Shown here piece after piece: positions 6,080-58,295 of a stretch of 64,000 nt of DNA. The stretch is from Patescibacteria group bacterium (GTDB lineage: Bacteria > Patescibacteriota > Minisyncoccia > UBA9983), in contig JBFMFK010000003.1 of assembly GCA_040752125.1 (NCBI GenBank), forward strand, positions 19,034 to 83,033. Direction: 5' to 3'. Each line of letters opens with the position of its first letter. The stretch's first letter is position 1. The position numbers and the translations under genes are program-made. The notes under the pieces were generated by a model that made no database searches, was not told where the DNA came from, and worked only from the letters and a program-made list of their open reading frames with translations.

Positions 6080-6781
6080 GTGAACAGCAGTATGAATAAT
6101 ATTTTAGAAGTAAACAATCTTTCTGTTAAATTCAGGAATGAAAAGATAATTGACAATCTTTCTTTTAATTTAAAGGAAAAAGATAATCTTGTGATCCTTG
6201 GTCCCAATGGTGCGGGTAAAAGTGTCCTCTTAAAAACTCTTCTGGGGCTTTTGCCGTTTGAGGGAGAGATTAAATGGAAAAAGGAGGTAAGAATCAGCTA
6301 TGTGCCCCAGAAATTTTTCCCTTCCGGCGAGATTCCTCTCAGCGTTGAGGAATTTTTTAAATTAAAGAAAATAGAAAAAAACGAAATTGAAAAATCTTTA
6401 AGATCAGTGGGATTGACTGATTTGGAGATTATGAAGAAAAAGATCGGCGTTATCTCAACAGGAGAGTTTCAAAGAGCGATGATCGCCTGGAGTCTGGCAG
6501 ACAATCCTGATGTTCTGCTTTTTGATGAGCCGACTGCGGGTATTGATATTGGCGGCGAGGAAACTATTTATAATCTTTTGATGCAAATAGAAAAAGAATT
6601 GAATCTGACCATGGTTATTGTTACTCATGAGCTTAATATCATTTATAAATTTGCCAATAGTGTTCTCTGCCTGAATAAAAAAGCAGTTTGCTATGGCACC
6701 CCTGAAGAAGCTCTTACGCCAGAAAGCATTGGTCAATTATACGGAGGGAAGATAAAATTTTATCAGCATCAACATGATTGA
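6080..6781 (+). CDS. znuC: metal (Zn/Mn) ABC transporter ATP-binding protein
   Basis: Walker A GPNGAGKS is present together with the ABC signature, a Walker B LLFDEP, and an H-loop. The gene overlaps the downstream ABC-3 permease. The start may be the ATG at 6092. Confidence 0.8.
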   Translation: MNSSMNNILEVNNLSVKFRNEKIIDNLSFNLKEKDNLVILGPNGAGKSVLLKTLLGLLPFEGEIKWKKEVRISYVPQKFFPSGEIPLSVEEFFKLKKIEKNEIEKSLRSVGLTDLEIMKKKIGVISTGEFQRAMIAWSLADNPDVLLFDEPTAGIDIGGEETIYNLLMQIEKELNLTMVIVTHELNIIYKFANSVLCLNKKAVCYGTPEEALTPESIGQLYGGKIKFYQHQHD

Positions 6782-8614: not shown

Positions 8615-8628
8615 TGAATTCTAAACAA

Positions 8629-8660
8629 GGGGGAGGTTTTAATCCCCCTTTTTATTTATT
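8629..8660 (+). terminator. rho-independent terminator (GGGGGA-ggttttaa-TCCCCC + TTTTTATTTATTTT)
   Basis: Direct read after the stop of the 8318 ORF. Confidence 0.8.
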
Positions 8661-8676
8661 TTATTTTACTACAAAA

Positions 8677-8701
8677 TGTTCAACTTCCGATATCGAACAT
8701 T
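8677..8701. promoter_or_regulatory. 25-nt palindromic motif TGTTCAACTTCCGATATCGAACATT upstream of ddl; near-identical copy upstream of proS (22893..22917)
   Basis: 22 of 25 nt are identical between the two copies. The second copy is a perfect 11-1-11 palindrome. Confidence 0.5.
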
Positions 8702-8744
8702 TTGAACATTTTGAAAATAAAGACTATGTGGTATTATATCAATA

Positions 8745-9731
8745 ATGGCAATCAAGGTAGGCATTCTTAGGGGCGGTCCATCTAATGAACATGAAGTTTC
8801 CCTAAAAACAGGGGAAAACGTAATTAAATATCTGCCCCAAAAATATTCTGTCTACGATATTATTCTAGGAAAAAGCGGAAATTGGTTTTTCAATAAAAAA
8901 ATTTCTCTTCCTGATAAAATTCTCCGGTCTATAGATGTTGTTTTCAATGCTTTACACGGAGAATTCGGCGAAGATGGAAAGGTTCAGCAAATTCTGGAAA
9001 CCTTTGGCGTTCCCTATACAGGTTCTGGCATCCTCTCCTCGGCATTGGGAATGAATAAAATTTTTTCCAGCGCTATCTTCGCAAAGGTCGGGCTGAAGAT
9101 ACCTGAAGGTATTATCATTGATAAAGAAAAATCACTCCTGGAAACAGCAAAAGATATTTTCAAACTGAAATCTCCTCCTTGGGTGGTAAAGCCAATTTCC
9201 TGCGGCTCGTCAGTCGGGGTTTGCGTGGCAGATACTTTTGACGATCTTGTAAGGGGTATAAAAGATGCCTTTTTATACAGCAATAGAATAATTATTGAGG
9301 AATATATCAAAGGAAGGGAAATGACCTGCGGGGTTATTGACAGTTTCAGAGGAGAAAGATATTACGCTCTGCCGGTGACAGAAATTATCCTTCCGCCATT
9401 TTGTAAATTTTTTGATTATAATGCAAAATATAAATATGAGACGCAGGAAATCTGTCCTGCTAATATTGATTTGAATATCAAAAAATCAATAGAAGAGATG
9501 GCAAAGACAGCGCATAGATCATTGGGCTGTAGAGATTACTCAAGATCTGATTTTATGGTTGCGTATAAAAAGAGGAAACCGGAAATATATATTCTTGAGA
9601 TTAATACTTTGCCCGGCTTGACACCAGCCTCTCTTTTGCCAAAGGCATTGAGTGCTGTTGGTTCAACCTATACAGAATTTTTAGATCACATCATTGGATT
9701 GGCATTAAACAGAAAAAATAATAAAAAATAA
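8745..9731 (+). CDS. ddl: D-alanine--D-alanine ligase
   Basis: The N-terminus reads IKVGILRGGPSNEHEVSLKTG. An ATP-grasp body is present, and the C-terminus ILEINTLPGLTPASLLPKA matches Ddl. Confidence 0.85.
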   Translation: MAIKVGILRGGPSNEHEVSLKTGENVIKYLPQKYSVYDIILGKSGNWFFNKKISLPDKILRSIDVVFNALHGEFGEDGKVQQILETFGVPYTGSGILSSALGMNKIFSSAIFAKVGLKIPEGIIIDKEKSLLETAKDIFKLKSPPWVVKPISCGSSVGVCVADTFDDLVRGIKDAFLYSNRIIIEEYIKGREMTCGVIDSFRGERYYALPVTEIILPPFCKFFDYNAKYKYETQEICPANIDLNIKKSIEEMAKTAHRSLGCRDYSRSDFMVAYKKRKPEIYILEINTLPGLTPASLLPKALSAVGSTYTEFLDHIIGLALNRKNNKK

Positions 9732-9733
9732 TT

Positions 9734-11053
9734 ATGGAAGAAAGAAATGTCGTAATAAAACTAGAGAATGTAGATTTTTACTACGATAAAGGCAAACCCA
9801 CTGAGGTGAGGGCGCTTAAAGAAATTGATCTTGACATTAAGACTGGTGATTATGTTAGTTTTTTCGGTCCGTCCGGTTGCGGCAAATCTACCATACTTTA
9901 CGTTATTGCTGGCGTGGAAAAGCCGGAATCAGGAAGGGTATTGGTCAATAATCAGGATCTGATGACTTTTTCTCCCAGAGAATTGGCAATTTACAGGCAG
10001 GTTGCCATTGGAATAATTTTTCAGAATTTTAATCTTATACCATCTGTCAGAAATATAGATAATGTTACCTTACCGATGGCCTTTTTGGGAATTTCTCCTG
10101 AAAGAAGAAGGCGCAGAGCAATGGAGATTCTTGGCCGTCTGGACATAGATGATTTAGCAGATCGTTTTCCGCATGAATTGTCCGGAGGCCAGCAGCAGAG
10201 AGTGGCCATTGCTCGAGCAATGGCCAATGACCCACCGATTATTTTAGCTGACGAACCTCTTGGCAATCTTGACACTGCCAATGCCACCAATGTTCTTGAC
10301 CTTTTAAGAAAATTCAAGGAAAGAGACGGTAAAACTATTGTTATGGTTACTCACGAGGCCTGGAGCTTGCGCGATGTGGATCGAGTCTTTTATATGCGCG
10401 ACGGAGCCATTATTAGAATAGAAGAGAGGAAAAAGAAAGAATCTGAATTGAAAAAAGTCGGCACATCATTTTATTACAAAAAGCTCTTTCCCGAATTGGC
10501 AGATGTTGAGAGCAGGGCCAAGGCAGTGGCATCTTTGATGCTTAGAGGCCATTCAAAAGAAGAAGTGAAAAGATTGGAATTTTTTCTCGTGCAGCTGATG
10601 AGGAAAAATATTGAAAAAGATTTATTCAAAAGGTGTCTGGATAGGCCATTTAAAAATGGCGGGGTCGGTCTTTGGAGACAGAAGGCTAATAAGATCGCTG
10701 ATTATGTTGAAGAGATCATCCAAGCACAGTCAGATCTTTCTGTGCTTTATAAAAAATTGGAGAAATTCCCTGATGCTCCATTATATGAAGAAATCAGCAA
10801 TTTGAGAAAGTGGCTGATTGAAGGATATGATTTGCGGTTAACACCGCTTCAAATGGGCCGCCTCAATGAAATTATTGGCGAGAGAATCAGAAATATAATC
10901 TCTGCTGAAGATTTTAAGAAAATTCTTGACCTTTCCAAAGATAAAGGAGGGGTGGGGCTGAAAATCCAGACCAGTTTAAAAATGGCTGAAAAATTGGAAA
11001 CCTTTTTGGGCAAACAAAAGACAGAAGAAATAAATAAAGAAGTAATCGTGTAG
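9734..11053 (+). CDS. ABC transporter ATP-binding protein (MacB/LolD/FtsE-type) with ~220-aa C-terminal extension containing an internal duplication
   Basis: Walker A GPSGCGKST, signature LSGGQQQRVAIARA and Walker B ILADEP are present. The C-terminal tail carries two KxGGVGL repeats (FKNGGVGLWRQK... and SKDKGGVGLKIQ...). Confidence 0.8.
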   Translation: MEERNVVIKLENVDFYYDKGKPTEVRALKEIDLDIKTGDYVSFFGPSGCGKSTILYVIAGVEKPESGRVLVNNQDLMTFSPRELAIYRQVAIGIIFQNFNLIPSVRNIDNVTLPMAFLGISPERRRRRAMEILGRLDIDDLADRFPHELSGGQQQRVAIARAMANDPPIILADEPLGNLDTANATNVLDLLRKFKERDGKTIVMVTHEAWSLRDVDRVFYMRDGAIIRIEERKKKESELKKVGTSFYYKKLFPELADVESRAKAVASLMLRGHSKEEVKRLEFFLVQLMRKNIEKDLFKRCLDRPFKNGGVGLWRQKANKIADYVEEIIQAQSDLSVLYKKLEKFPDAPLYEEISNLRKWLIEGYDLRLTPLQMGRLNEIIGERIRNIISAEDFKKILDLSKDKGGVGLKIQTSLKMAEKLETFLGKQKTEEINKEVIV

Positions 11054-11064
11054 CGAATATTTTT

Positions 11065-12336
11065 ATGGATACTCAAAAATTTCAAGAAAAAGAATTTAAG
11101 ATACAAAGAGAACAGAACATGGTGTTAAAAGCTGATTCCCACCATCTTCGGTTTGGAGATCTTTTTAAATTGTCTTTGCGAGTTTTCAGGGTGAGACCGG
11201 CAAGAACTCTGCTGACGATTTTGGGAATTTCCATAGGCATTGGCACGGTTTTGTTTTTGGTTTCTTTGGGCTATGGCCTGCAGTATATTTTAATAGGAAA
11301 ACTGGCAGCCACAGAGGATTCTTTGGTAACATTGGATGCTTATTATCCTACGGAAAGCAATCTTAACATTATGCAAAAAGACATTGATGAGATTCTTGTT
11401 ATGGAGGGAGCCCAGGAAATAAGTCCGGTGGCAGAATTCACCGGAGAAACAAAGCTAGACACTCTTTCAGGATTTGTAATGGTGAAGATAGTGCGTCCGA
11501 ATTATTTCCGCTTGTCTGGAACGGCCGCAGACAAGGGTTCTGTATTTACTGAAGGCGAGAAATCAGCAATAATTTCCAATAATGCCCTGCAGCTTTTTGA
11601 TTTGGATCCTGATAATGCTCTTGGCAAAAAGGTTTCTGTAAAGGTTTTTTTCCTGCTCAATCAAGAATCAGAAGTTAAGACTGTGGATATTACTTCGGAA
11701 TTCAACATCAAAGGCATTATCAATGACGACACCCAACAGCCTTTTATTATGATTCCTTTTGATTCAGTTCCAGAGGCACCCCCTTCTTATCAGAGGATTT
11801 TGGTCAAAGCAAAGAGCATAGATGAAGTAGAGCCATTAAGAGATAAATTGATTGCCCAAGGATTTTTAATTTCCGCGAGAATTGATTTGGTAAATCAGGC
11901 AAAAAAAATCATGACCATCATCACTATTATCTTAGGTGTATTCGGCGTAACCGCCCTAGTTGTTTCTGCTATCGGAATGTTCAATACTATGATTATCGGA
12001 TTTATGGAAAGAATTTTTGAAGTCGGAATTATGAAATCAATCGGCGCTTCAATACAGGATATCAGAAATCTTTTTCTGATGGAATCTTTCATAATGGGAA
12101 TCTTAGGCGGCATTGGCGGAATTTTGATAGGGATCTTGAGCGGAGAAATATTCAATCTTGTTTTGAATCTCATTGCCAAGAACTTGGGCGGAAAGTCTGT
12201 TCAGTTGTTTATTTATCCTTGGCAATTTTTGATTTTTATTTTTATAATCTCAGCATTAGTTGGCATCAGCTCTGGATTCTGGCCTGCGCGCAAGGCATCA
12301 AAACTGTCGCCAAAACAAGCCTTCATACAGAAGTAA
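11065..12336 (+). CDS. ABC transporter permease, FtsX/MacB-like (N-terminal TM, large extracytoplasmic domain, three C-terminal TM helices)
   Basis: The N-terminus LRVFRVRPARTLLTILGISIGIGTVLFLVSLG and the C-terminal TM bundle are typical of the MacB_PCD/FtsX family. Confidence 0.75.
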   Translation: MDTQKFQEKEFKIQREQNMVLKADSHHLRFGDLFKLSLRVFRVRPARTLLTILGISIGIGTVLFLVSLGYGLQYILIGKLAATEDSLVTLDAYYPTESNLNIMQKDIDEILVMEGAQEISPVAEFTGETKLDTLSGFVMVKIVRPNYFRLSGTAADKGSVFTEGEKSAIISNNALQLFDLDPDNALGKKVSVKVFFLLNQESEVKTVDITSEFNIKGIINDDTQQPFIMIPFDSVPEAPPSYQRILVKAKSIDEVEPLRDKLIAQGFLISARIDLVNQAKKIMTIITIILGVFGVTALVVSAIGMFNTMIIGFMERIFEVGIMKSIGASIQDIRNLFLMESFIMGILGGIGGILIGILSGEIFNLVLNLIAKNLGGKSVQLFIYPWQFLIFIFIISALVGISSGFWPARKASKLSPKQAFIQK

Positions 12337-12406
12337 TCGCGGATTAACGAATTTGTGCGAATATGACTAATACAAAAGAAAATAAATACTTATTTAAAAC
12401 CAAAAT

Positions 12407-12820
12407 ATGAATGGTCCAATAAAAATTCTGGCGATTGAGGATGATGAATTTATAAGAATCTTGTTAATGGATATTTTCTGGATTCATGGTGTCAAAGACA
12501 ATCTTCAGCTTCTTCTGGCTAGCAACATCAGCGAGGCAAGAGATATTTTAAATAGAGAGAAACCAGCATTGATTATTTTGGATATGATGCTGCCTGAAAA
12601 AGAAGAAGAGCCGTTGAATAAGCTTGCTGGTTGCAAATTTTTGGAAGAATTAAAGAAAAACTCGCGAACACGAGATATTAAAATACTTGTATTTTCTGGT
12701 TTTGACGATAAAGAGCTAAAGGAAAAAGCAATGAAATTAGGAGCAGATAAATTTTTAGTCAAAGGAGAGCATATGCCAAAAGAGCTTTTAGATTCAATAA
12801 AAGAGCTAATCAACATATAA
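12407..12820 (+). CDS. stand-alone response-regulator receiver domain (CheY-like)
   Basis: IKILAIEDDEFIRILL, ALIILDMMLP and a conserved K (KILVFSG) are present. There is no output domain, and no histidine kinase is visible in the window. Confidence 0.75.
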   Translation: MNGPIKILAIEDDEFIRILLMDIFWIHGVKDNLQLLLASNISEARDILNREKPALIILDMMLPEKEEEPLNKLAGCKFLEELKKNSRTRDIKILVFSGFDDKELKEKAMKLGADKFLVKGEHMPKELLDSIKELINI

Positions 12821-13755: not shown

Positions 13756-13765
13756 CTTAACAAAC

Positions 13766-13860
13766 ATAAAAAAGTTTTTCAAAAATATTATAATAAATAA
13801 AAAATCCGAAATCCGAAATCCTAAACAAATTTCAATGAATCAAATCCCAAATTCAAATTA
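13766..13860. repeat. ~95-nt leader repeat R1 (AAAAAGTTTTTCAAAAATATTATAATAAA...AAATCCGAAATCCGAAATCCTAAACAAATTTCAATGAATCAAATCC), duplicated at 14521..14611
   Basis: The two copies are about 90% identical, each placed directly upstream of an operon start. Each contains a TATAAT and a triple AAATCCN direct repeat. Confidence 0.85.
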
Positions 13861-14504: not shown

Positions 14505-14520
14505 TTATGAGATGAGAAAA

Positions 14521-14611
14521 TATAAAAAAGTTTTTCAAAAATATTATAATAAAAAATCCTAAATCCTAAATCCTAAACAAATTTCAATGAATCAAATCCT
14601 AAAATCCAAAC
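14521..14611. repeat. leader repeat R2 (copy of R1)
   Basis: See R1. Confidence 0.85.
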
Positions 14612-22818: not shown

Positions 22819-22944
22819 TCAACGACTCGTCGATGACTCGACAACGGTTGTCGAGTTTGTAATAAAGGGTGCAACTACGATGCGATCGCATTTGTTCGAC
22901 TTCCGAAGTCGAACATTAGTCGATAATCTTAATGGTTTTGACTA
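22819..22944. promoter_or_regulatory. GC-richer structured intergenic region with 7 GTCGA/TCGAC occurrences, a 7-bp/3-nt hairpin (TCGACAA-cgg-TTGTCGA, 22838..22854) and the perfect palindrome GTTCGACTTC-c-GAAGTCGAAC (22894..22914)
   Basis: Direct read. The composition contrasts with the flanking AT-rich DNA. Confidence 0.5.
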
Positions 22945-24231
22945 TTGGATTTTTTTAATGTAAAATTTAAAACAATGAGACAATCAAAGCTATTCCCAAA
23001 AACATTGAGAGAAGATCCAAAGGATGAAGTTTCCATCAATGCCAAGCTCCTGATAAGGGGCGGCTTTATAGATAAATTAATGGGAGGAGTTTACAGTTTT
23101 CTTCCCTTAGGATTTTGTGTCCTTAAAAAAATAGAGAATATTATAAGAGAAGAAATGGAAGCCGCAGGAGGACAGGAGATACTGATGCCGGTTATTCAAC
23201 CAAAAGAGAATTGGCTAATAACTAAAAGATGGGACACTTATGATACCTTATTTAAGTTTGCGAGTTTTTATTCAAAAACAGAATTTGCTCTCGGTCCCAC
23301 CCATGAAGAAATTATTTCTCCTTTGGTAGGCAAATTCTCTTTATCTTATAAAAATCTTCCACTTTATCTTTTTCAAATTCAAACTAAATTAAGAGATGAG
23401 AAAAGAGTTAAGGCCGGCATTCTGCGCGGCAGAGAATTTATAATGAAAGATCTCTATTCTTTTCATACTGATGAGAAAGACCTTGATAGATATTATGAAA
23501 AAATGAAAAAACATTATATGAATATATTCAAGAAATGCGGGGTAGGTGACAAAACTTTTATCACATTTGCTTCAGGAGGAACTTTTTCAAAATATTCCCA
23601 TGAATTTCAGACTGTCACAGAGGCAGGAGAAGATAAAATTTTTATTTGCGATAGCCATGCGGGGAAGCAAAATTCCAACAAAGGTTGCCAGACTGCAATC
23701 AATAAAGAAATATTTGACGAACAAAACTTTTGTCCGGTTTGCAAGGGTAAGAAATTCAAAGAAAAAAAAGCCATAGAAATAGGCAATATTTTCAAGTTAA
23801 AAACCAAATACTCTTCCCCTTTTGGTTTAAAATTCACAGATAAAGATGGAAATAATAAAGATGTTATCATGGGATGCTATGGCATAGGTTTAGGTCGGCT
23901 TTTGGGAGCAATCGTAGAAGTGCATCATGATTCAAAAGGTATCATCTGGCCGGAATCGGTTTCTCCCTTTAAGATTCATCTTTTGGAGCTTGATAGGAGT
24001 GTTAGAGACCTTTATGCGTATTTAAACAAAAACGGCATAGAGGTATTATATGATGACAGAAAAGATGTTACTGCAGGAGAAAAATTCAATGACGCGGATT
24101 TGCTGGGAATACCATATAGAGTAATAGTCAGTAAAAAAACTTTAAAGGCCGGGAAAATAGAAGTAAAAAAAAGAGGATCAGAAAAACCAAAATTGATTTT
24201 AAAAAAAGATTTGTTGAGATATGTTAAATAA
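22945..24231 (+). CDS. proS: prolyl-tRNA synthetase, short bacterial-type without editing insertion; carries a Cys/His-rich insert (CDSHAG…C…CPVC)
   Basis: Class II motifs are present. The N-terminus MRQSKLFPKTLRE and the anticodon-binding C-terminus match ProRS. The probable true start is MRQSK at 22975. Confidence 0.85.
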   Translation: MDFFNVKFKTMRQSKLFPKTLREDPKDEVSINAKLLIRGGFIDKLMGGVYSFLPLGFCVLKKIENIIREEMEAAGGQEILMPVIQPKENWLITKRWDTYDTLFKFASFYSKTEFALGPTHEEIISPLVGKFSLSYKNLPLYLFQIQTKLRDEKRVKAGILRGREFIMKDLYSFHTDEKDLDRYYEKMKKHYMNIFKKCGVGDKTFITFASGGTFSKYSHEFQTVTEAGEDKIFICDSHAGKQNSNKGCQTAINKEIFDEQNFCPVCKGKKFKEKKAIEIGNIFKLKTKYSSPFGLKFTDKDGNNKDVIMGCYGIGLGRLLGAIVEVHHDSKGIIWPESVSPFKIHLLELDRSVRDLYAYLNKNGIEVLYDDRKDVTAGEKFNDADLLGIPYRVIVSKKTLKAGKIEVKKRGSEKPKLILKKDLLRYVK

Positions 24232-25273
24232 ATTTTATGAACTTTTTTCAAGCGACATTGGTATTGATTTAGGTACGGCTAATACCTTGGTTTATGTCAA
24301 GGGGCGGGGAATTATAATCAATGAACCTTCCATTGTTGCCATCAATAAAAAAACAGATCAGGTGGTGGCCATAGGCAATGATGCCAAAAAAATGTTGGGA
24401 AGAACACCAGCACATATTGAAGTGATTAGGCCGTTGGTAGAAGGAGTTATCTCTGATTTTGAAATTACCGAAGAAATGCTGAGATATTTTATTAAAAAAA
24501 TCCATCAAGGCAGTTCTAAGATTTTTGCCCGGCCGCAGATAGTTATCGGTGTTCCTTCAGGAATCACTAATGTAGAAATCAGGGCGGTGCGCGATGCTGC
24601 TACAAATGCCGGAGCCCGCACTGTTCATATTGTGGAAGAACCAATAGCAGCTGCCATCGGAGTGAGATTGCCAATTTATGATCCTATCGGCAATATAGTG
24701 ATAGATATCGGAGGCGGAACAACAGACATCGCTATTATCTCATTGGGGGGCATTGTCATTTCAAAAAATATGAGGATTGCCGGAGATAGATTTAATGAAG
24801 ATATAATCAATTATATGAGAGATGAATTTAAGATGTTGATTGGTGAAAGAACTGCTGAAGATATCAAGATAGCCACCGGTTCTGTTGCCAAATCCAGCGA
24901 GGGGATAGAGACAATAGTTAGAGGAAGAGACCTTGTGAGCGGCTTGCCAAGAGAGGTTATCATTACAGATTCAGATATCAGAGAGGCCATCATAAAATCT
25001 GTAAAACTTCTAATAAAGGCAACCAAAGAAGTAATAGAAGAAACACCGCCTGAACTTATTTCAGATATAATGCACAGAGGAATTGTTATGGTCGGAGGAG
25101 GGTCGTTTTTGCGGGGCCTGGCTAAAACCTTTGAATCAGAAATTAAAATCCCTGTATTTATCCCTGAAGATCCTCTAACAGCAGTGGTTAGGGGCACAGG
25201 GATTATCCTTGAAGATTTAAATAGATTTAAAGATATCCTTATTCAGCATGAAGACGATTTACCACCGCACTAA
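24221..25273 (+). CDS. mreB: rod shape-determining protein MreB
   Basis: DIGIDLGTANTLVYV and DIGGGTTDIAIISLGG actin-fold motifs are present. Confidence 0.9.
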   Translation: MLNKFYELFSSDIGIDLGTANTLVYVKGRGIIINEPSIVAINKKTDQVVAIGNDAKKMLGRTPAHIEVIRPLVEGVISDFEITEEMLRYFIKKIHQGSSKIFARPQIVIGVPSGITNVEIRAVRDAATNAGARTVHIVEEPIAAAIGVRLPIYDPIGNIVIDIGGGTTDIAIISLGGIVISKNMRIAGDRFNEDIINYMRDEFKMLIGERTAEDIKIATGSVAKSSEGIETIVRGRDLVSGLPREVIITDSDIREAIIKSVKLLIKATKEVIEETPPELISDIMHRGIVMVGGGSFLRGLAKTFESEIKIPVFIPEDPLTAVVRGTGIILEDLNRFKDILIQHEDDLPPH

Positions 25274-26054
25274 GATTAAGGGCATCAAGAAGCTTATTGT
25301 CATAGCCTTAATCTTAATTTTTATTTTTTTCATTTCCCAATCAGATTATCTCAAATCAAAATTTTCAAATTTTTTTCTGACAGCAGCAAAGCCGTTCTGG
25401 AAAATCAGCCTTGTCTCTAAAGATTGGCTTAACAAAAATTTGTCTGGATTTAAAGAAAAAGCATTGCTTGCAGAGCAGAATGAAAGATTAAAAAGCAAGA
25501 TTCAGGAATTGGAAGCAAAATTTATCAATTACAGTATTTTAGAAAAAGAGAATCAAGATCTTAAAGAGGCTCTTTCGCGCTTTCAAGAGAAAAATCAAAA
25601 ATATATTTTGGCCAATATACTGGCGAGACCGCCGCAGACCGGCTTTGATGTTTTGATTATAGATGTTGGTTCATTGAACGGAATCCAACAGGGTATGAGA
25701 GTGATAGCCTACGATGATATTTTGTTTGGATATATTAATGAAGTCTTTTCAAAAACCAGCAAAGTAACATTGATTTCTTCTCCTTCAAAAGAGAATGATG
25801 TATTTATACAAACAGACCGCCAGGATCAAATTTTTACTATTGCCAAGGGGAGAGGAGGTGGAAATCTTGAAATCAAACTGCCTGTTTCCATTGACATCAA
25901 GGAAGGAAATCCAATTTTGTCTGTAGGTACTTTTCCTTTGGTAATTGGCGTTGTCTCTAAAATAGAAAAAAACCAAGCTGATCCTTTTCAGAAAATTTTT
26001 TTCCGCCTCCCAATTAACATTCAACAGTTGCGCTATGTCTTTATAGAGAAATAA
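25248..26054 (+). CDS. mreC: rod shape-determining protein MreC
   Basis: It has an N-terminal TM, a coiled coil (LLAEQNERLKSKIQELEAK) and a beta-rich C-terminal domain. It sits directly after mreB. Confidence 0.7.
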   Translation: MKTIYHRTKIKGIKKLIVIALILIFIFFISQSDYLKSKFSNFFLTAAKPFWKISLVSKDWLNKNLSGFKEKALLAEQNERLKSKIQELEAKFINYSILEKENQDLKEALSRFQEKNQKYILANILARPPQTGFDVLIIDVGSLNGIQQGMRVIAYDDILFGYINEVFSKTSKVTLISSPSKENDVFIQTDRQDQIFTIAKGRGGGNLEIKLPVSIDIKEGNPILSVGTFPLVIGVVSKIEKNQADPFQKIFFRLPINIQQLRYVFIEK

Positions 26055-26055
26055 C

Positions 26056-26298
26056 ATGATTAAAAGGATAATCAGTGATATCATTCTATTCTTTAGCATT
26101 TTTTGGCTAGCCTGGTATTGGACGGTTTTGATTATTCTTATCTTTATGATTTTTTTTGAAGACTACTGGGAAGGTGTGGCCGCAACATTTTTTATGGATA
26201 TTCTTTTTTCCAAAAGCTTTGGCATTTTCACCGTTCTCTCTCTTATTTTCTTCTTTTTTATTGGTAAAATGAGAACAAACATCAGATATGGTCTTTAA
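26056..26298 (+). CDS. mreD: MreD-like small polytopic membrane protein
   Basis: The call rests on position between mreC and pbp2. The protein is 80 aa and very hydrophobic. Confidence 0.4.
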   Translation: MIKRIISDIILFFSIFWLAWYWTVLIILIFMIFFEDYWEGVAATFFMDILFSKSFGIFTVLSLIFFFFIGKMRTNIRYGL

Positions 26299-27970
26299 TT
26301 TTAGAAAAAAGAAACAAAAACCCATAGAAATTTATCCTGACGAGATCTTTCTTGATTCAAAAAATATTCCGCAATTTGACGTTTACCAGTTTGAAGGGAG
26401 GATTGAAAAACCCATTGGCAAAAGAACTTTTATCACTATGACCGTATTTTTTATTATGGTTGGTATTTTTTTTGTCGGCGAGCTTTTTTCTATACAAATT
26501 CTAGAAGGAAAAACTCTTAGGGAAAGAAGTGAGAAAAATAGTCTTAGAATAGATTATATTTTGGCAAATAGAGGCATTATTTTTGACAGAAACGGAGAAA
26601 CTTTGGCGTGGAACGAACCTGATGCCAGATTATATATAGATTGGAACGGCCTCAGTCATGTGTTGGGATATGTCGGCCTGCCCTCGGAAGAAGATTTGCA
26701 AAAGATTGATAATCTTCCACTGAAGCAGATTTTAGGCAAAGATGGAATAGAAAAAAGATACAATGATATTCTAGGAGGAAAACCGGGAATGAAAATAGTT
26801 GAGACAGATGTAGAAAATAATATTATATCAGAAAGCATACAGAATCATCCGGAAGAAGGAAAAAATATAAAATTAACCATTGATGCCAAATTGCAATCGC
26901 AATTTTTTAATATCATGGAATCTGTTATGAAAGACAGAGGATTCCATGGCGGGAGCGGAATCATTATCAATGTTAATAACGGCGAGATCTTATCGCTTGT
27001 GAGCTGTCCGGAATATGACTCTGAAATTCTTTCAAAAGGTGAACCCGAAGAAAAGATAATGGAATTTTTAAATGATGCCAATAAGCCTTTTCTTAATCGC
27101 GTCATAGCTGGTCTTTACGCTCCAGGATCAATCATTAAGCCATTGATTGCCATTGCCGCTCTTAATGAAAATATAATTTCTTCACAAAAACAAATTTTTA
27201 GCGCGGGATATATCTCTATTCCTAATCCTTTTTTCCCTGACAAGCAAAGTATATTCAAAGATTGGAAGACGCACGGCTGGATTGATATGAGAAAGGCGAT
27301 CGCTGTCTCTTCAGATGTATATTTTTACGAAATTGGAGGAGGATTTGAAGAGCAAAGAGGTCTTGGTATTAAAAAAATTGAAGATTACACAAAATTATTT
27401 GGGCTTGATTCGTTAACAGGAGTAGATCTCTATGGCGAAGAAATCGGTATCGTGCCCAATCCTGATCTAAAAGAAAAATTTGAACCTAATGACCCTATTT
27501 GGAGAATAGGAGATACTTATAATGCCAGCATCGGCCAAGGATATTTCCAGGTAACACCTGTAGAGATGGCAATTTATGCATCAGCTATTGCCAACAAAGG
27601 AAAGATTATCAAACCTCATCTTATTCTTGAAGATAACATTCAAGACTACACACTGCGAAGTTTAAATATATCAGAAGATTATTTTAATATTATCCATGAG
27701 GGTATGCGATTGTCAGTCAAAGAGGGGACCGCCAGTGCATTGAATGTTTTTGGTGCAGAGATTGCTGCTAAAACCGGTACAGCTGAGATAGGAGCTGGTA
27801 AAAAATATGTTAATTCTTGGGTGATAGGATTTTTCCCTTATGATCATCCACAGTATGCTTTTGCAGTTGTTATGGAAAAAGGACCTTCTGCCAATCTTGT
27901 AGGCTCGCCCTATGTAATCCGTCAGTTAATTGATTGGATGACTATCTATACCCCTCAATATTTGAAGTAG
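26288..27970 (+). CDS. mrdA: penicillin-binding protein 2 (elongasome transpeptidase)
   Basis: SxxK (GSIIKP), SxN (SSD) and KTG (KTGTAE) motifs are present, with an N-terminal TM and dimerisation domain. It follows mreBCD. Confidence 0.8.
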   Translation: MVFNFRKKKQKPIEIYPDEIFLDSKNIPQFDVYQFEGRIEKPIGKRTFITMTVFFIMVGIFFVGELFSIQILEGKTLRERSEKNSLRIDYILANRGIIFDRNGETLAWNEPDARLYIDWNGLSHVLGYVGLPSEEDLQKIDNLPLKQILGKDGIEKRYNDILGGKPGMKIVETDVENNIISESIQNHPEEGKNIKLTIDAKLQSQFFNIMESVMKDRGFHGGSGIIINVNNGEILSLVSCPEYDSEILSKGEPEEKIMEFLNDANKPFLNRVIAGLYAPGSIIKPLIAIAALNENIISSQKQIFSAGYISIPNPFFPDKQSIFKDWKTHGWIDMRKAIAVSSDVYFYEIGGGFEEQRGLGIKKIEDYTKLFGLDSLTGVDLYGEEIGIVPNPDLKEKFEPNDPIWRIGDTYNASIGQGYFQVTPVEMAIYASAIANKGKIIKPHLILEDNIQDYTLRSLNISEDYFNIIHEGMRLSVKEGTASALNVFGAEIAAKTGTAEIGAGKKYVNSWVIGFFPYDHPQYAFAVVMEKGPSANLVGSPYVIRQLIDWMTIYTPQYLK

Positions 27971-27998
27971 TTATTTGAATAAATTATAATCTATAAAT

Positions 27999-29465
27999 AT
28001 GAGTTCGTTTGAGGAATTACGGAAAGGGAGATTGGAAAAATTAAATCTTCTCAGAGAAAAAGGCGTGGACCCTTTTCCTATATCCATTCGGAGAGATTTT
28101 TCTATTATTGAGGCATTAAAAGATTTTCCCAAATTATCCAAAAAGAAAAAACAATCTTTTGTCTGCGGAAGGGTAATGGCGATACGCGAGCACGGGGGCT
28201 CTATTTTTTTTGACATTAGTGACGGTGACGCAATAATGCAGGCCTATATCAAAAAAGATGAAATAGGAAAGGAACAATTTTCTCTTTTTCAAGAAACCAT
28301 TGATATCGGTGATTTTGTAGAGCTTAAAGGATTATTTTTTAAGACAAAGAAAAAGGAAAAAACAATAAAAGTTTCTCAATGGAGGATTATCGCAAAATCC
28401 TTAAGACCTTTGCCGGACAAATGGCACGGCTTGCAGGATGTTGAAGAAAGATTCAGAAAAAGATATCTGGATTTATTGATGAACAAAGAAATAAAAGGAA
28501 GATTTTTGCTGCGTTCTAAAATTATCTCAGAGATGAGAAACTATCTTGATAAAGAAGGTTTTCTGGAAGTGGAAACGCCGGTTTTGCAGCATTTGGCAGG
28601 CGGAGCATTGGCCGAGCCTTTTAAAACCCATCATAATGCTTTGGATATAGATTTATATCTCCGCATTGCGCCTGAACTTTATTTAAAAAAATTATTGATT
28701 GGAGAATTTACAAAAATTTATGAAATAGGAAGAAATTTCAGAAATGAGGGGATTGATGTTACTCATAATCCTGAATTTACCATGCTTGAATTGTACGAAG
28801 CATATAGAGACGCGGAATATTTAAGAAAATTTTCAGAAAAAATGATAAAAACTATAGTCAAGAAGATTTTGGGTAAAAAAGAATTTGAATTTAGAGCAGA
28901 GAAGATATCTTTTAGAAAAAAATTCAATATTGTTTCCTATTTAGATATTCTTAAGTATTATACTTTAATAATTGAACCAGAAAAAATGTCGCGCGAAGAT
29001 TTTGTGCTGAAATCTAAGCAATTTGGAATCAAGACAGAAGATTTTGAGACTAAAGAAAAAATAATGGACAATATTTTTAAAAAAATATGCCGGCCAAAAA
29101 TAATCCAGCCGACATTTGTTATTGACTACCCAACAGGATCATCGCCTTTAGCCAAAAGAAAGGAAAAAGATAAAAACTTAATTGACAGATTTCAATTGAT
29201 AATAGGCGGCTTGGAAATTATTAATGGCTTTTCTGAACTTAATGACCCTCTTGAACAAAAAGAAAGATTTAAAGAACAGGATAAAGCCAAAGAAAAAGGA
29301 GAAAAAGAAGTTTCTCCCAGTGATGAGGATTATCTTGAAGCAATAGAATACGGACTGCCGCCAGCTGCCGGTCTTGGTGTCGGCATAGACCGTCTGGTTA
29401 TGCTTCTTGCCAATACTCACAACATTCGCGAAGTCATTCTTTTCCCGACCTTAAGACCAAAATAA
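27999..29465 (+). CDS. lysS: lysyl-tRNA synthetase, class II
   Basis: An OB-fold N-terminus is followed by FLEVETPVLQ, and the C-terminus ends in GLGVGIDRLVMLL. Confidence 0.9.
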   Translation: MSSFEELRKGRLEKLNLLREKGVDPFPISIRRDFSIIEALKDFPKLSKKKKQSFVCGRVMAIREHGGSIFFDISDGDAIMQAYIKKDEIGKEQFSLFQETIDIGDFVELKGLFFKTKKKEKTIKVSQWRIIAKSLRPLPDKWHGLQDVEERFRKRYLDLLMNKEIKGRFLLRSKIISEMRNYLDKEGFLEVETPVLQHLAGGALAEPFKTHHNALDIDLYLRIAPELYLKKLLIGEFTKIYEIGRNFRNEGIDVTHNPEFTMLELYEAYRDAEYLRKFSEKMIKTIVKKILGKKEFEFRAEKISFRKKFNIVSYLDILKYYTLIIEPEKMSREDFVLKSKQFGIKTEDFETKEKIMDNIFKKICRPKIIQPTFVIDYPTGSSPLAKRKEKDKNLIDRFQLIIGGLEIINGFSELNDPLEQKERFKEQDKAKEKGEKEVSPSDEDYLEAIEYGLPPAAGLGVGIDRLVMLLANTHNIREVILFPTLRPK

Positions 29466-29596
29466 TCTATTTAGCATCCGCATCCGATTTTCGATTTTCG
29501 ATGTTTAATCGAACTTATATTTGCTATAGCAGATATAAGTACATTTAAATATAAATACATTACAAATGTTACCTTTTTTTATTCACTAAATTCCTT

Positions 29597-29699
29597 TGTG
29601 GAAGTTATCCACAATCTTTTATTTGGAAAATAAAGAAAAGTGGAGTATAGTGTTAATAAAGTGGTAGATTGTGGATAATTGTGTGGATAATGTGGATAA
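29597..29699. promoter_or_regulatory. DnaA-box cluster: TTATCCACA (29605..29613) and three TGTGGATAA (29670..29678, 29682..29690, 29691..29699) plus a 2-mismatch box at 29597; adjacent AT-rich tract 29536..29590
   Basis: Four perfect 9-mers matching the E. coli/B. subtilis DnaA-box consensus fall within 95 bp, immediately upstream of mraZ. Confidence 0.6.
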
Positions 29700-29723
29700 C
29701 TCTCATTTATACGGAAAAATATT

Positions 29724-43520: not shown

Positions 43521-43550
43521 GGCTTGCCCTGCGAAGCTTCAGCGAAGTGG

Positions 43551-43622
43551 GACCTCTTCGTCTAGTGGTTAGGACACATGGTTCTCAGCCATGCAACACG
43601 GGTTCGACTCCCGTAGAGGTCA
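43551..43622 (+). tRNA. tRNA-Glu (anticodon CUC)
   Basis: Cloverleaf drawn by hand. The acceptor stem is GACCTCT/AGAGGTC. The anticodon stem is CATGG/CCATG with loop TTCTCAG, and the T-arm is ACGGG-TTCGACT-CCCGT. Confidence 0.85.
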
Positions 43623-43639
43623 ATGCTATAATAAGACCA

Positions 43640-46306
43640 ATGTTAAGACAGGCAATTGCTTGGCATAGTTTGGATTTAAAAGAAATAAAAAAACAATTGG
43701 CGACTGATTTTAGCAATGGTTTAAGTGAAAAAGAAGCGCAAAAGCGGCAGAAACATTACGGCAAAAATCTTTTTGAGAAAAAAAAGAAATTTTATTATCT
43801 TAAACTTTTATGGAAGCAAATAAAAAGCCCCCTTATTTTTATCTTAATCATCGCCGGCCTTATCACTCTCATTTTAAAAGAATATGCTAACACTACTGTT
43901 ATTTTCATCGCTGTTTTTATAAATACTTTAATGGGCATCTTTCAGGAAGGTCGGAGTTCGCGGGCTTTTGAAAAATTGCAAGCATCACAGAAAAAATACG
44001 CCACCCTTGTCAGGGAGGGTAGAAAAAAAATAATAGAATCTTCCGAACTTGTTCCCGGCGATATTATTGAAATCCAAATGGGGAATCAGGTGCCAGCGGA
44101 TGCCCGCATCATAGAATCAAAGAGGTTGGAAGCCAATGAAGCAGTTTTAACAGGGGAATGGCTGCCAGTCAAAAAAGACAATCAAAAATCTCTGCCTGAG
44201 AAAACACATATCACTGACAGGAGCAATATGTTGTGGATGGGGAGTTTGGTGACAGAGGGGTGGGGAAGAGGCGTTGTTGCAGATACGGGTTTCAACAGCC
44301 AAGTCGGCCGCATCGCTGAATTTATAAGCGGAGAAGATACGGTTGTTACGCCGCTTCAAAAAAATACAAAAAAATTGGCTAAGTTTCTGAGTTTTATCGT
44401 TGTTTTGTCGCTGTTGGTTTTGATCATCCTGGGTTTGTGGCGGGGCCAGAACTTTTTTGGCATATTTTTAACTGCTGTAGCTCTGGCAGTGTCAGCTATT
44501 CCCGAGGGCCTGCCAGTGGCAGTGACAGTGGTTTTAGCAATAGGAATGCAGAAAATTTTTTCCAAAAACGGCCTGCTGAAAAATTTAGATTCAGCAGAAA
44601 CCCTTGGTTCCACTTCTCTCATTCTCACTGACAAAACCGGCACCCTTACAAAGGCAGAGATGAATGTGGAAAAAATCATTACTTTGCTTTCCGAAGAAAA
44701 CAAATTAAAGCCAAAAGAACACAAAGACAGATTGGCTGTTTTAGAGATGGCTTTGCTAGCCACTGAAGCATTTATAGAAAATCCTCAAGATAATCTCGGA
44801 GAATGGATTATTAGAGGAAATCCAATGGGGAGGGCAATTTTTCTGGCTTCCTTGGAATCAGATATCCAGCCTTTGGTCTTGCAAAAAGAGCATAAGCGCA
44901 TTGATTTTATACCTTTTGACGCGGGCAGAAGATATGCCGCTTCCTTATATAAAAAAAATAATCAGGAATCTTATATTTTTGTCATTGGCGCGCCAGAAGT
45001 TATTCTTCAGTTTTGCAACAAAATTTACAAAAAAGAAAAGGAAATTGCTCTTAGCGAACCAATACTCAAATTATTAAACAAGGCCTCTTTGGAAGAAACC
45101 TCAAAAGGCGCGAGAATTTTAGCTGTGGCTTACAGAAAGGCAGATTGGGATTCTTTTCCCAGAGAGCAAGAGAAGAAACATAAGGAAATTTTTTCAAAGA
45201 TGACCTTGGGAGGATTTATTGCCTTTCATGACCCCTTAAGAGAGAATGCCAAGCAGTATTTGCAAGAGTCAAAGGAAGCATCTATAAGAACTGTGCTGGT
45301 AACCGGCGACCATGTGGAAACCGCTAAAAAAATCGGAGAGGAAGTCGGAATTTTACGCAAAAACGGACTTGTTTTAACAGGAGATGAGTTAGAAAAAATG
45401 AGCGACAAAGAACTCGAGGAGATAATCGGAAAAGTAGATATTTTTGCTCGAGTCCTGCCCCAGCAAAAAATGAGAATTTCAAATTTCTGGCAGCAAAGAG
45501 GGGAAATAGTGGCTATGACCGGCGACGGAGTTAATGACGCGCCTGCCTTAAAGCACGCTGATATCGGAATTGCTCTTGGTTCAGGCACCGAGGTGGCAAA
45601 AGAAGCGTCAGATTTAATTCTTTTAAATGATAGTTTTAATACTATTGTGGAGGCAGTTAAGGAAGGAAGAAGAATCATGGATAATTTAAGAAAAATTATT
45701 ACCTATCTTTTGTCAACGTCTTTCAGTGAAATCGTCTTAGTGGCGAGCTCCATTCTGGTTGGCGCGCCATTGCCAATTCTGCCTGCGCAAATTCTCTGGG
45801 TCAATATCATAGAGGAAGGTTTTATGAATTTTGCCTTTGCTTTTGAGCAGGCTGAAGAGAATATTTTAAAAAGAGACCCCAAAAAAGAATGCAGCAGGGC
45901 AATTTTGACAACACGAATAAAAAAAATGATTTTGATAATAGTGGCAATAACCAGTCTTTTGCTTATCTCTGTATTTTTTTTCTTAGATTATAAAAATTAT
46001 CCCCTGGAAAAAGTAAGAACGGTTATGTTTGGGGCTATGGCCATAGATGCAATATTTTTCAGTTTTTCCCTCAAGAATCTGCGAAAGCCGGTTTGGAAAA
46101 TCAATATCTTTTCCAACATTTATCTTCTTTTCTCGCTATCAGTCAGTATTTTTCTTTTGCTGAGTGTTTTATTTATTCCTTTTCTGCAAAAATTGCTTTC
46201 TGTTGTTTCGCTTAGTTTTTTAGAATTAATGATTATTTTTATTATCGGCTTTTTGAATCTTTTGACCATAGAAACAGTAAAATATTTCGTCTTTAGAAAA
46301 CAATAA
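43640..46306 (+). CDS. P-type Ca2+-transporting ATPase (P2-type)
   Basis: DKTGTLT, TGDGVNDAPALK and the PEGLP TM4 motif are present. The supplied ORF (from 43547) reads through tRNA-Glu, so the start is taken at ATG 43640 (MLRQAIAWHSLDLKEIKK…). Confidence 0.85.
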   Translation: MLRQAIAWHSLDLKEIKKQLATDFSNGLSEKEAQKRQKHYGKNLFEKKKKFYYLKLLWKQIKSPLIFILIIAGLITLILKEYANTTVIFIAVFINTLMGIFQEGRSSRAFEKLQASQKKYATLVREGRKKIIESSELVPGDIIEIQMGNQVPADARIIESKRLEANEAVLTGEWLPVKKDNQKSLPEKTHITDRSNMLWMGSLVTEGWGRGVVADTGFNSQVGRIAEFISGEDTVVTPLQKNTKKLAKFLSFIVVLSLLVLIILGLWRGQNFFGIFLTAVALAVSAIPEGLPVAVTVVLAIGMQKIFSKNGLLKNLDSAETLGSTSLILTDKTGTLTKAEMNVEKIITLLSEENKLKPKEHKDRLAVLEMALLATEAFIENPQDNLGEWIIRGNPMGRAIFLASLESDIQPLVLQKEHKRIDFIPFDAGRRYAASLYKKNNQESYIFVIGAPEVILQFCNKIYKKEKEIALSEPILKLLNKASLEETSKGARILAVAYRKADWDSFPREQEKKHKEIFSKMTLGGFIAFHDPLRENAKQYLQESKEASIRTVLVTGDHVETAKKIGEEVGILRKNGLVLTGDELEKMSDKELEEIIGKVDIFARVLPQQKMRISNFWQQRGEIVAMTGDGVNDAPALKHADIGIALGSGTEVAKEASDLILLNDSFNTIVEAVKEGRRIMDNLRKIITYLLSTSFSEIVLVASSILVGAPLPILPAQILWVNIIEEGFMNFAFAFEQAEENILKRDPKKECSRAILTTRIKKMILIIVAITSLLLISVFFFLDYKNYPLEKVRTVMFGAMAIDAIFFSFSLKNLRKPVWKINIFSNIYLLFSLSVSIFLLLSVLFIPFLQKLLSVVSLSFLELMIIFIIGFLNLLTIETVKYFVFRKQ

Positions 46307-47275: not shown

Positions 47276-47319
47276 AATTTTATAAGATTATTCATTATAT
47301 TTATAAAATTAAGATTATT

Positions 47320-47347
47320 AAGTATTTCTACGATCGTAACTATACTT
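47320..47347. promoter_or_regulatory. 28-bp palindrome AAGTAT-ttc-TACGATCGTA-act-ATACTT overlapping the -35 region of the PaaX-like gene promoter (extended -10 TGTATAAT at 47362..47369, start codon 6 nt later)
   Basis: Direct read. A related copy, AAGTATTCTTACGATCGTAGCGATATTT, lies downstream of the gene at 47955..47982. Confidence 0.5.
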
Positions 47348-47375
47348 AATAGTTGTATTTTTGTATAATTGAGCT

Positions 47376-47927: not shown

Positions 47928-48042
47928 ATTGTGCATCGCGCATAAGTATTAAGTATTCTTACGATCGTAGCGATATTTCATAGTTTAGCTGGCTAGCTGG
48001 TTAGTTGATTAAATTAGATTTAAATGGAAAATGGAAAACAAA

Positions 48043-53184: not shown

Positions 53185-53350
53185 CTGGTCTGCTAGGATA
53201 TCAGAAAGATTAATATATTTGAGAACTCGTAAGCAATCGAAGAACCCAATAATATTCCTAACATTTTGAAGTAAATTTTGTCAACTATCCCCTATTCCAT
53301 GCCATAGTAATGAATAGATGACAATATGTCGCAAAATAAAGTGAACATTT

Positions 53351-53371
53351 ATCTGCGATAGCAAGTATATG
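53351..53371. promoter_or_regulatory. 21-nt core ATCTGCGATAGCAAGTATATG (copy a), identical to 63154..63174 and related to 63809..63829
   Basis: Exact 21/21 match with the copy upstream of rplU. It lies about 170 nt upstream of the minus-strand PRTase gene. Confidence 0.6.
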
Positions 53372-58261: not shown

Positions 58262-58295
58262 GGAGGTTGAACCTCTGTTTAGAGGTTCAACCTCC
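58262..58295. promoter_or_regulatory. perfect 15-bp inverted repeat GGAGGTTGAACCTCT-gttt-AGAGGTTCAACCTCC in divergent ctpA / corA-like intergenic region
   Basis: Direct read. Each arm is also internally palindromic around GGTTGAACC. Confidence 0.5.

Follow-up and report, generated by a model that had tools for sequence, protein, structure and literature searches.

Systems of repetitive extragenic palindromes (REPs) and REP-associated tyrosine transposases (RAYTs) have been described in Proteobacteria (PMC3479197, PMC3116915, PMC6006769), and the arrangement of a RAYT gene with flanking REPs is known as the REPtron (PMC6006769, PMC5581495). The biochemistry of REP/RAYT systems (PMC3479197) and the structures 4ER8, IS608 and ISDra2 underlie the mechanism considered here. 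In addition, Quentin et al. (2018, PMC6006769) have described the TnpA_Y1 subclass 2.6 of Bacteroidetes and a class 3 with a CnGA foot. The present analysis concerns a 64-kb stretch of a Patescibacteria (candidate phyla radiation, CPR) contig, hereafter the window, which carries two closely similar 25-nt palindromes, copy 1 upstream of ddl and copy 2 upstream of proS. These are considered, with a probability of about 0.8, to be solitary copies of a REP-like element family that is associated with RAYT-like genes in Patescibacteria and that appears, from its sequence distribution, to be widespread there. The initial annotation had offered two readings of the pair: either an operator, bound by a dimeric regulator that connects cell-wall with translation genes, or a small repeated element. 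The first is not upheld by the evidence presented below, and the second is supported and can be specified as a REP-like hairpin family with RAYT-like HUH transposase genes.

The palindrome family and its hairpin signature

The two copies in the window are identical at 22 of 25 bases. Copy 2 has the arms TGTTCGACTTC-C-GAAGTCGAACA and is a perfect 11-1-11 palindrome, and copy 1 differs from the family consensus TGTTCRACNTCNGANGTYGAACA by one mismatch; the minimum-free-energy fold of the copy 1 region employs the extra arm at 8702-8710. From the end of copy 1 to the ddl ATG (8745) there are 44 nt. Copy 2 ends 28 nt before a TTG at 22945 and 58 nt before an ATG at 22975, the latter being the start that yields a 418-aa ProS identical to the NCBI protein. 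Positions (Table 1), identity, palindromy and distances all agree with the initial annotation, and only its figure of about 30% GC for the genome requires correction, as the window was measured at 35.8% G+C. Both copies are intergenic and occur as singlets 14.2 kb apart. A degenerate search of the 64 kb with up to 3 mismatches returned these 2 sites only, against an expectation of 0.00 from 100 dinucleotide-preserving shuffles, in line with the earlier statement that such a pair is unlikely by chance. No further copies or half-sites were seen in the window besides the two sites and the arm at 8702-8710, and relaxed patterns gave matches at chance level.

Many further copies are found elsewhere, in one Patescibacteria genome and in 111 metagenome stretches; loci from these and other genomes are designated here by L numbers. 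Scanning one genome per species with the exact pattern identified 5 copies in the Patescibacteria metagenome-assembled genome (MAG) KR11_0.1_MetaG.mb.31. Four of them lie within 1.3 kb (L001), among argS, an MNT/HepT toxin-antitoxin pair and a small open reading frame (ORF), and the fifth is terminator-like (L005). A slightly relaxed pattern gave 125 instances in the 111 stretches, which derive from groundwater, sediment and similar samples, and the 1.03-Mb contig Ga0209864_1000001 holds 3 copies. The consensus is aTGTTC[A/G]AC-N-TC-N-GA-N'-GT[T/C]GAACAt, also written as a TGTTNRACNNCNGNNGTYNAACA-type palindrome, with a unit of approximately 23-25 nt. Paired copies occur 58 nt apart in L001 and about 213 nt apart in L054 and L055; the unit is near-symmetric, so that orientation rests on the centre base, and no orientation bias of the copies was observed. 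Two acidobacterial loci, L002 and L003, were rejected as probable chance matches, about 4 of which were estimated for the pattern by a back-of-envelope calculation, and a copy inside gpmI of a member of the Saccharibacteria (L004) may be a real in-frame copy. With 0 expected and more than 100 further instances elsewhere, chance duplication was rejected as an explanation of the pair.

The family carries the signature of a paired stem. Covariation was examined at positions left free by the search pattern. Among 108 instances, pair 16-28 is A-U in 62, G-C in 32, G-U in 3 and another combination in 11, and pair 19-25 is A-U in 67, G-C in 12, C-G in 7 and U-A in 7. The covariation score was 0.230 compared with 0.125 in shuffles, none of 500 shuffles scoring as high, and 73% of cells were paired in the structure compared with 31-41% in slid controls. 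Moreover, the perfect palindrome continues into the variable flanks for 2.5 nt on average, as against 0.64 nt in a control in which left and right flanks were taken from different instances. An extension of at least 4 nt is present in 32% of instances and in 2.4% of controls (examples being L042, L043, L016, L028, L040 and L096). Predicted folds are stable on both strands, and a hairpin of 10-12 bp with a 3-nt loop is possible in single-stranded DNA or RNA. Half-arm duplications lie beside the element in L029, L034, L060, L066, L073, L097, L103 and at window copy 1. A stem needs self-complementary variable flanks and a dimeric regulator does not, which favours a hairpin over an operator; judged from these sequence patterns, the element appears to behave as a hairpin rather than as a protein-binding duplex.

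Other palindromes accompany the family. A second palindrome family, TGTCAACGTGGCAGGTTGACA, adjoins REP copies at L001 (1358, 2097 and 2624-2670), L031 and L062, forming mosaic clusters that resemble bacterial interspersed mosaic elements and that include a tandem run of the TGTCAACGTGGCAGGTTGACA left arm; this family was not found in the window. A sister palindrome, TGGTCGACTT(CGT/ACG)AAGTCGACCA, is present in 4 copies within 2.4 kb at L053 (2699, 4137, 4746 and 5054), near the RAYT-like gene of Ga0209864_1000001, and two related hairpin families thus coexist in one genome. In-frame copies of the element itself occur inside ordinary genes, namely tsaE (L055, 1505), the homologue of the PBP2 gene at window 26288-27970 (L020, 2481) and gpmI (L004, 6137), where they take the place of a variable loop, as in LVSCSTSDVEQIG of L020 compared with LILEDNIQDYTLRSLN of the window PBP2.

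Association with RAYT-like transposase genes

Clustered copies bracket one gene, at 0-30 nt from its start and stop codons, in L013, L033, L035, L037, L041, L078, L094 and L098. The product has 220-290 aa and an IS200-like Y1 HUH transposase domain. All 4 bracketed genes scanned against Pfam matched Y1_Tnp (PF01797, 'Transposase IS200 like') with E values of 1e-5 to 2.5e-11, and their sole NCBIfam match was the REP-associated tyrosine transposase NF047646 (REP_Tyr_transpos, an equivalog family). The HUH motif (N-H-x-H) and the tyrosine of Y-I-H-x-N-P are invariant in sets of 13 and 24 sequences. An AlphaFold model of the RAYT-like protein P0123 had a pLDDT of 80.5. Its first-ranked Foldseek match was 4er8_A, the Escherichia coli RAYT bound to a REP hairpin (E 4.3e-4, TM 0.51/0.65, rmsd 3.9). 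Its lead over the transposases of IS608 and ISDra2, which came next and had a higher rmsd or a lower TM, is modest. A single-sequence search of solved structures with the RAYT-like protein gave no match, and a profile search of solved structures matched ISDra2 TnpA and E. coli TnpA_REP, both weakly. The protein of L094 has at least 1,939 homologues at E < 1e-10, and the named homologues among the 120 matches listed are mostly annotated as 'transposase' from Patescibacteria, Parcubacteria or Paceibacterota.

The association was also examined independently of the motif. Four homologues (L120-L123), with 80, 65, 60 and 57% identity, were picked by protein similarity and long contigs; a related palindrome lies within 40 nt of the gene in all 4 and on both sides of it in 3. 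These palindromes drift with protein divergence, from TGTTGGACATCGGAAGTCCAACA through TGTTAGACACCGAGTGTCTAACA and ATGTTAGACGCCGAGCTTCTAACAT to TTGTTGAAAACCGAGCTTTTAACA and TGTGCAAAACCGAGCTTTGCACA, and the two gene-flanking copies of TGTTAGACACCGAGTGTCTAACA are in inverted orientation. Such drift argues for co-evolution of hairpin and enzyme, as REP/RAYT systems show. No tnpB partner was seen beside the genes of L120-L123.

Several of these genes also contain the palindrome themselves. A conserved internal copy is located in frame approximately 170-200 nt from the start of the RAYT-like gene in L078 (1978), L098 (5663), L037 (1219), L033 (4784), L094 (2278), L041 (9860), L054 (2125), L120 (10174) and L121 (10180). 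Its translation is F-V-(R/Q)-H-R-x-F-N-I in the majority of these genes, whereas L098 uses a different reading frame. The internal variant is always that which flanks the same gene, and this suggests possible self-regulation or self-targeting of the RAYT-like gene. The gene neighbourhoods of the RAYT-like gene differ between genomes; in L121, 8 kb from the RAYT locus, positions 277-1719 encode a 480-aa product with LexA DNA-binding, S24 peptidase and N6/N4 DNA methyltransferase domains, which is an unusual fusion.

A connection with the window's own genome is provided by copy 2 and by protein accessions. The 23-mer of copy 2 is identical, as its reverse complement, to a REP 12 nt past the stop codon of the L094 RAYT gene. 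A homologue that is 81% identical to the L094 RAYT (P0122 = MEW5907848.1, on an 86,862-nt contig) has an intact HUH motif and Y-motif tyrosine. The window Ddl and ProS are identical to MEW5907620.1 and MEW5907636.1, MAG proteins at NCBI from a 92,813-nt contig, and their accession difference of 16 follows gene order. The accession of the homologue lies 212-228 numbers beyond those of ProS and Ddl, and this proximity suggests that the gene is very probably on another contig of the same MAG.

By comparison with REP/RAYT and IS200/IS605 systems, the transposase would recognise the folded hairpin on single-stranded DNA, and would cut and rejoin it, seeding copies in permissive intergenic DNA, mostly just 3' of genes. 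Within the window, copies would have been inserted into the spacer between the 98-aa ORF and ddl and that between rseP and proS. Once in place, a copy might possibly act as an extra transcriptional stop, as an insulator or as a 3'-end stabiliser of read-through RNA.

Placement and orthologous loci

Of 109 distinct instances, 74 fall between genes when ORFs are called crudely. They lie closer to the preceding stop codon (median 42 nt; within 30 nt in 42 of 85) than to the next start codon (median 80 nt; within 30 nt in 7 of 51), and a T-run (at least 6 of 8 T) follows the stem in 11 of 62 copies. The motif is on the 5' side of 46 genes, which represent 61 Pfam families with at most 2 members each, and on the 3' side of 74 genes with 84 Pfam families, Y1_Tnp being among the most frequent. 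Neither Ddl nor any cell-wall family is among the top 25 families listed for the 5' or the 3' side. The functional heterogeneity of the genes beside the motif argues against a regulon, and the presence of ddl and of proS-mreBCD-pbp2 next to the two window copies is best read as a coincidence of insertion sites.

Conservation at orthologous ddl and proS promoters, a natural expectation for an operator, is absent. At the ddl loci of the nearest available relatives (L117, L118 and L119; 67, 63 and 62% amino acid identity) there is no motif even when 5 mismatches are allowed. In all three uppS lies upstream of ddl, which overlaps or abuts the upstream gene; downstream of it, L117 in addition retains the genes for the ABC transporter and FtsX. 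Likewise, the proS region of the nearest available relatives L124 and L125 (70-75% amino acid identity) has no motif with 4-5 mismatches allowed. The synteny with L125, whose ProS is 70% identical, is complete, comprising a giant fn3 gene, holB, frr, rseP, proS, mreB, mreC and PBP2; the rseP-proS gap measures 23 nt in L125 and 156 nt in the window. Gene order is conserved at most of the three ddl and two proS loci, and the spacers that bear the element are lineage-specific. According to the initial annotation, a chance duplication would be indicated if the motif were not conserved at these promoters in relatives and no further copies existed. The first proved to be the case and the second did not: with many copies elsewhere, chance duplication is ruled out and a mobile repeat is indicated.

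Weighing the alternatives

A number of observations weigh against the REP-like reading. The matches to NF047646 score 21-61 bits, below the cut-off of 80. No RAYT gene is present in the 64-kb window, and the gene-plus-flanking-palindrome layout of a REPtron is seen in related loci and in the protein-selected loci L120-L123. In the eight positions on either side of the hairpin (-1 to -8, +1 to +8) there is no GT[AG]G or CGTC foot, and an A/T preference is all that is apparent (A-A-A before, T-T-T after). The copies are fewer than is usual for a classical REP, namely 2 per 64 kb, 5 exact-pattern matches in the KR11 MAG and 3 per 1.03 Mb. Mobility is proposed from analogous systems, and the relatives compared are all at or below 75% amino acid identity, so that the empty orthologous sites belong to fairly distant genomes. 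Finally, L125 carries a diverged family member, TGTTGAACACCGAGTGTTCAACA, at 6540-6562; the giant fn3 gene ends 17 nt ahead of it, and only 6 nt separate it from a following Ddl-family gene. That gene encodes 304 aa, is 56% identical to the window Ddl with a 26-aa deletion, and lies elsewhere in the locus than proS. As the locus has about 20 spacers, this placement would be roughly a 1-in-20 coincidence, spotted post hoc; that two genomes have a palindrome in front of a ddl gene may reflect coincidence or an earlier REP-linked rearrangement.

The same L125 copy would suit an operator, at which a dimeric factor with a LexA-like flavour would bind the double-stranded palindrome and co-regulate ddl and proS-mreBCD-pbp2. 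So would the position of the window copies just 5' of promoter-like sequences, which also counts against a REP-like element: the distances from palindrome centre to -35 hexamer, 23 and 34 nt, differ by 11 bp or one helical turn, which would place both copies on the same helix face, the ddl promoter having been recognised by eye only. Given the positions across the family, this phasing was judged coincidental. Peptidoglycan genes are present in both downstream gene runs, and in L037 copies are situated between umuD-like and umuC-like genes; insertion of a RAYT gene at this point accounts for the L037 copies. Against an operator stand the absence of the motif from the relatives' ddl and proS loci, where the genes abut their upstream neighbours without a separate promoter region, the unrelated neighbours over 109 instances, and the proximity to stops rather than starts. 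Variable flanks that extend the palindrome are, moreover, unneeded for recognition of double-stranded DNA by a protein. No DNA-binding regulator is encoded beside either copy, and the sole regulator in the ddl run is a receiver-only protein. The resemblance to a LexA/Cheo box that had been pointed out does not withstand comparison, as GTTCGAC-N7-GTCGAAC has its arms in the opposite order and at another spacing than CGAAC-N4-GTTCG, and a LexA/SOS box was rejected on arm order, spacing and gene context. An operator is hence regarded as very improbable.

A purely cis-acting hairpin, serving as terminator, insulator, 3'-end protection or RNA-binding-protein site with an incidental link to the transposase, would account for the 42 of 85 copies that lie 0-30 nt past stop codons, for A-run and T-run flanks like those of bidirectional terminators (e.g. 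L005, L023, L024, L025 and L114) and for stable folding of both strands. Yet a T-run is uncommon after the stem, the window copies are not terminator-like and each already has a separate terminator-like hairpin 5' of it, and a 20-nt sequence is kept across distant genomes, unlike in terminators. Nor would such a role explain why the palindrome co-varies with the transposase gene that it brackets or why copies also occur in frame within coding regions, and no Rfam family matches the element. As a complete explanation it is unlikely, and as a secondary, co-opted function it is compatible with the REP-like reading. An active insertion sequence (IS) of the IS200/IS605 type, with the solo palindromes as leftover or miniature ends resembling palindrome-associated or miniature inverted-repeat transposable elements (PATEs or MITEs), as opposed to a vertically inherited, single-copy RAYT with its REPs, is likewise unlikely. 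The Pfam name of Y1_Tnp, the IS608 and ISDra2 TnpA proteins as next-best structural and best sequence matches among solved structures, a copy number more like that of IS ends than of classical REPs and the changing gene neighbourhoods are all consistent with it. It is opposed by the length of the protein, which has a C-terminal extension and compares with about 130-155 aa for IS200/IS608 TnpA, by best NCBIfam and structural matches that are REP-associated enzymes, and by the missing tnpB partner. Both ends, furthermore, carry palindromes of one family and not distinct left and right ends, and solo copies lie far from transposase genes. A further reading, in which hairpin and RAYT-like protein form a domesticated system, is speculative and unlikely; the protein would be a nuclease or binder specific for the sequence and structure of the hairpin, autoregulated through the in-gene palindrome, and the dispersed copies (at ddl, at proS-mreBCD and at the L125 Ddl gene) would serve as insulators or switches.

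Other identities were considered and rejected. The AAC...GTT variant resembles the RYYYAAC/GTTRRRY core of an integron attC site, a reading dismissed by reasoning: the GAC...GTC variants break this core, attC sites are much longer than the element, and the copies bracket a Y1 transposase and not cassettes beside an integrase, no integrase search having been made. The TGTT...AACA ends and the terminator-like pairs bring to mind parS-like sites and DNA-uptake sequences; flank palindromy and transposase bracketing do not fit either, and an uptake sequence would have to be present in far more copies.

Setting of the copies and other repeats in the window

Each copy is situated in its spacer, 8615-8744 for copy 1 and 22819-22974 for copy 2, between a terminator-like hairpin and the next gene (Table 1). 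An intrinsic terminator has a G+C-rich stem with a T-run directly after it, and neither copy was itself scored as terminator-like by the scan. The terminator-like hairpin just 5' of copy 2 has its core, TCGACAAC-N1-2-GTTGTCGA (22836-22856), in common with a different, terminator-like palindrome of a related genome at L121 (2573-2595).

Table 1. Features at and around the two palindromes of the 64-kb window.
Feature	Position	Strand	Remarks
REP-like palindrome, copy 1, TGTTCAACTTCCGATATCGAACATT	8677..8701	no strand	decayed; arms pair over 6 bp, then mismatch
Extra right arm TTGAACATT	8702..8710	no strand	immediately 3' of copy 1; pairs perfectly with left arm AATGTTCAA
REP-like palindrome, copy 2, TGTTCGACTTCCGAAGTCGAACATT	22893..22917	no strand	perfect 11-1-11 palindrome at 22893-22915
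Terminator-like hairpin with T-run, of the upstream 98-aa ORF	8627..8650	+	from scan; copy 1 lies between this hairpin and ddl
Possible ddl promoter, TTGAAA-17-TTATAT	8711..8739	+	by eye; promoter scan gave no + strand call here
Gene run 3' of copy 1: ddl, ABC ATPase, MacB/FtsX-type permease, receiver-only response regulator	8745..12820	+	context, outside the element
Terminator-like hairpin after rseP, core TCGACAACGGTTGTCGA	22830..22854	+	from scan; copy 2 is 38 nt downstream
Promoter-like TTGACT-17-TAAAAT	22938..22966	+	from scan; 10/12 matches; between copy 2 and proS
Gene run 3' of copy 2: proS, mreB, mreC, PBP2, class II Lys/Asn-type tRNA synthetase	22975..29465	+	context, outside the element

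At gathering thresholds, Rfam identified two tRNAs only in the whole window, and a permissive Rfam scan of four repeat-rich loci found nothing at the elements. A P-type ATPase ORF was called mechanically as 43547-46306, but its GTG start coincides with tRNA-Glu (43551-43622), and the true start of the gene must therefore lie further downstream.

The window contains several other repeats. Two PaaX_M/Cas2-like genes of 183-184 aa, at 47376-47927 (+) and 63205-63759 (-), are flanked at either end by a palindrome of about 37 nt that is particular to each gene, the regions concerned being 47316-47985 and 63146-63835. The palindrome of the first gene is TATTAAGTAT..CTACGATCGTA..ATACTTAATA and that of the second ATTACCATATA.CTGCGATAGCA..TATATGGTAAT; more copies of the second type are present at 53322-53371, upstream of a 105-aa ORF and rpmA, and, diverged, at 29515-29540 in the gap between the Lys/Asn-type synthetase gene and mraZ. 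Such genes might encode a regulator that controls itself along with a few other genes, or might belong to a further mobile module. Just upstream of mraZ, at 29590-29710, there are four to five nonamers that resemble DnaA boxes, TTATCCACA / TGTGGATAA, and in L001 the same TTATCCACATA follows two REP copies. Direct repeats of about 100 nt, 92-95% identical and with AATCC(G/T)AA pentamer-like runs, are located at 13762-13857 and 14518-14609, upstream of an aspartyl protease-like gene at 14115 and an MNT nucleotidyltransferase gene at 14740. Between a divergent S41 peptidase gene (57000-58220, -) and a gene starting at 58368 there is a palindrome, GGAGGTTGAACCTCTGTTTAGAGGTTCAACCTCC (58262-58295), the arms of which measure 15 bp.

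Implications and comparison with known systems

For annotation, the REP-like reading removes a false lead, the ddl/proS regulon, and the palindrome is to be flagged as a repeat. It would also mean that the ultra-small, streamlined genomes of Patescibacteria carry a REP/RAYT-type system. Such a system was not found described for them, and no paper joining REP/RAYT and Patescibacteria/CPR terms was present among the literature matches listed, which in one case were 15 of 649. It departs from the classical systems in its footless, near-perfect hairpin, its very low copy number, the tolerance of in-frame copies and the copy within the transposase gene. With these properties it would offer a small natural model in which to study how hairpins are recognised by RAYT-type enzymes and whether REP-like elements persist by domestication under strong genome reduction. 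In addition, the palindrome is convenient as a marker when contigs are binned or strains typed within Patescibacteria.

Among known systems, the LexA Cheo box of Gram-positive bacteria (CGAAC-N4-GTTCG) shares the GTTC and GAAC tetramers of the palindrome; in the Patescibacteria element, however, the arms are reversed with 13 nt between GTTC and GAAC, and the motif is neither at SOS-type genes as a class nor conserved at orthologous promoters. Rickettsia palindromic elements are similar in having in-frame copies in genes, as in tsaE (L055), the PBP2 homologue (L020), gpmI (L004) and the transposase. They are 100-150 bp long and have no known dedicated transposase, whereas the present element has 23-25 nt. 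With the IS200/IS605 family (IS608, ISDra2) and PATEs, the system has in common the catalytic fold, the HUH/Y chemistry and, presumably, recognition of subterminal hairpins on single-stranded DNA, and it differs in a longer protein, end hairpins of one family, the lack of a visible tnpB and scattered solo hairpins.

A closer likeness is found in TnpA_Y1 subclass 2.6 and class 3, which comprise Y1 HUH genes with GT[AG]G-free flanking structures and few further genomic copies (PMC6006769). The centre C-C/G-G-A of the Patescibacteria element resembles CnGA of class 3, although CnGA is a 5' foot there and the hairpin tip here, and the Y motif Y-I-H-x-N-P is class 2-like, this comparison being made by published description only. 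From the REP/RAYT systems and REPtrons of Proteobacteria, such as the E. coli REP with YafM/RayT (4ER8) and the Pseudomonas REPIN-RAYT, the system is set apart by its host, by an almost perfect palindrome with a 3-nt loop and no GT[AG]G/CGTC foot, and by few copies per genome as opposed to tens to hundreds. The window copies are singlets and not REPIN doublets, and the protein, of about 220 aa, is longer and divergent, below the NCBIfam equivalog cut-off, with an in-frame palindrome inside its own gene. Nevertheless, the likeness to REP/RAYT systems extends to the dispersed, intergenic hairpin palindromes, mostly at gene 3' ends, to the presence of copies, frequently inverted relative to each other, at both ends of a gene for a Y1 HUH tyrosine transposase, to the co-variation of palindrome and protein between genomes, and to the best solved match of the modelled protein, 4er8_A.

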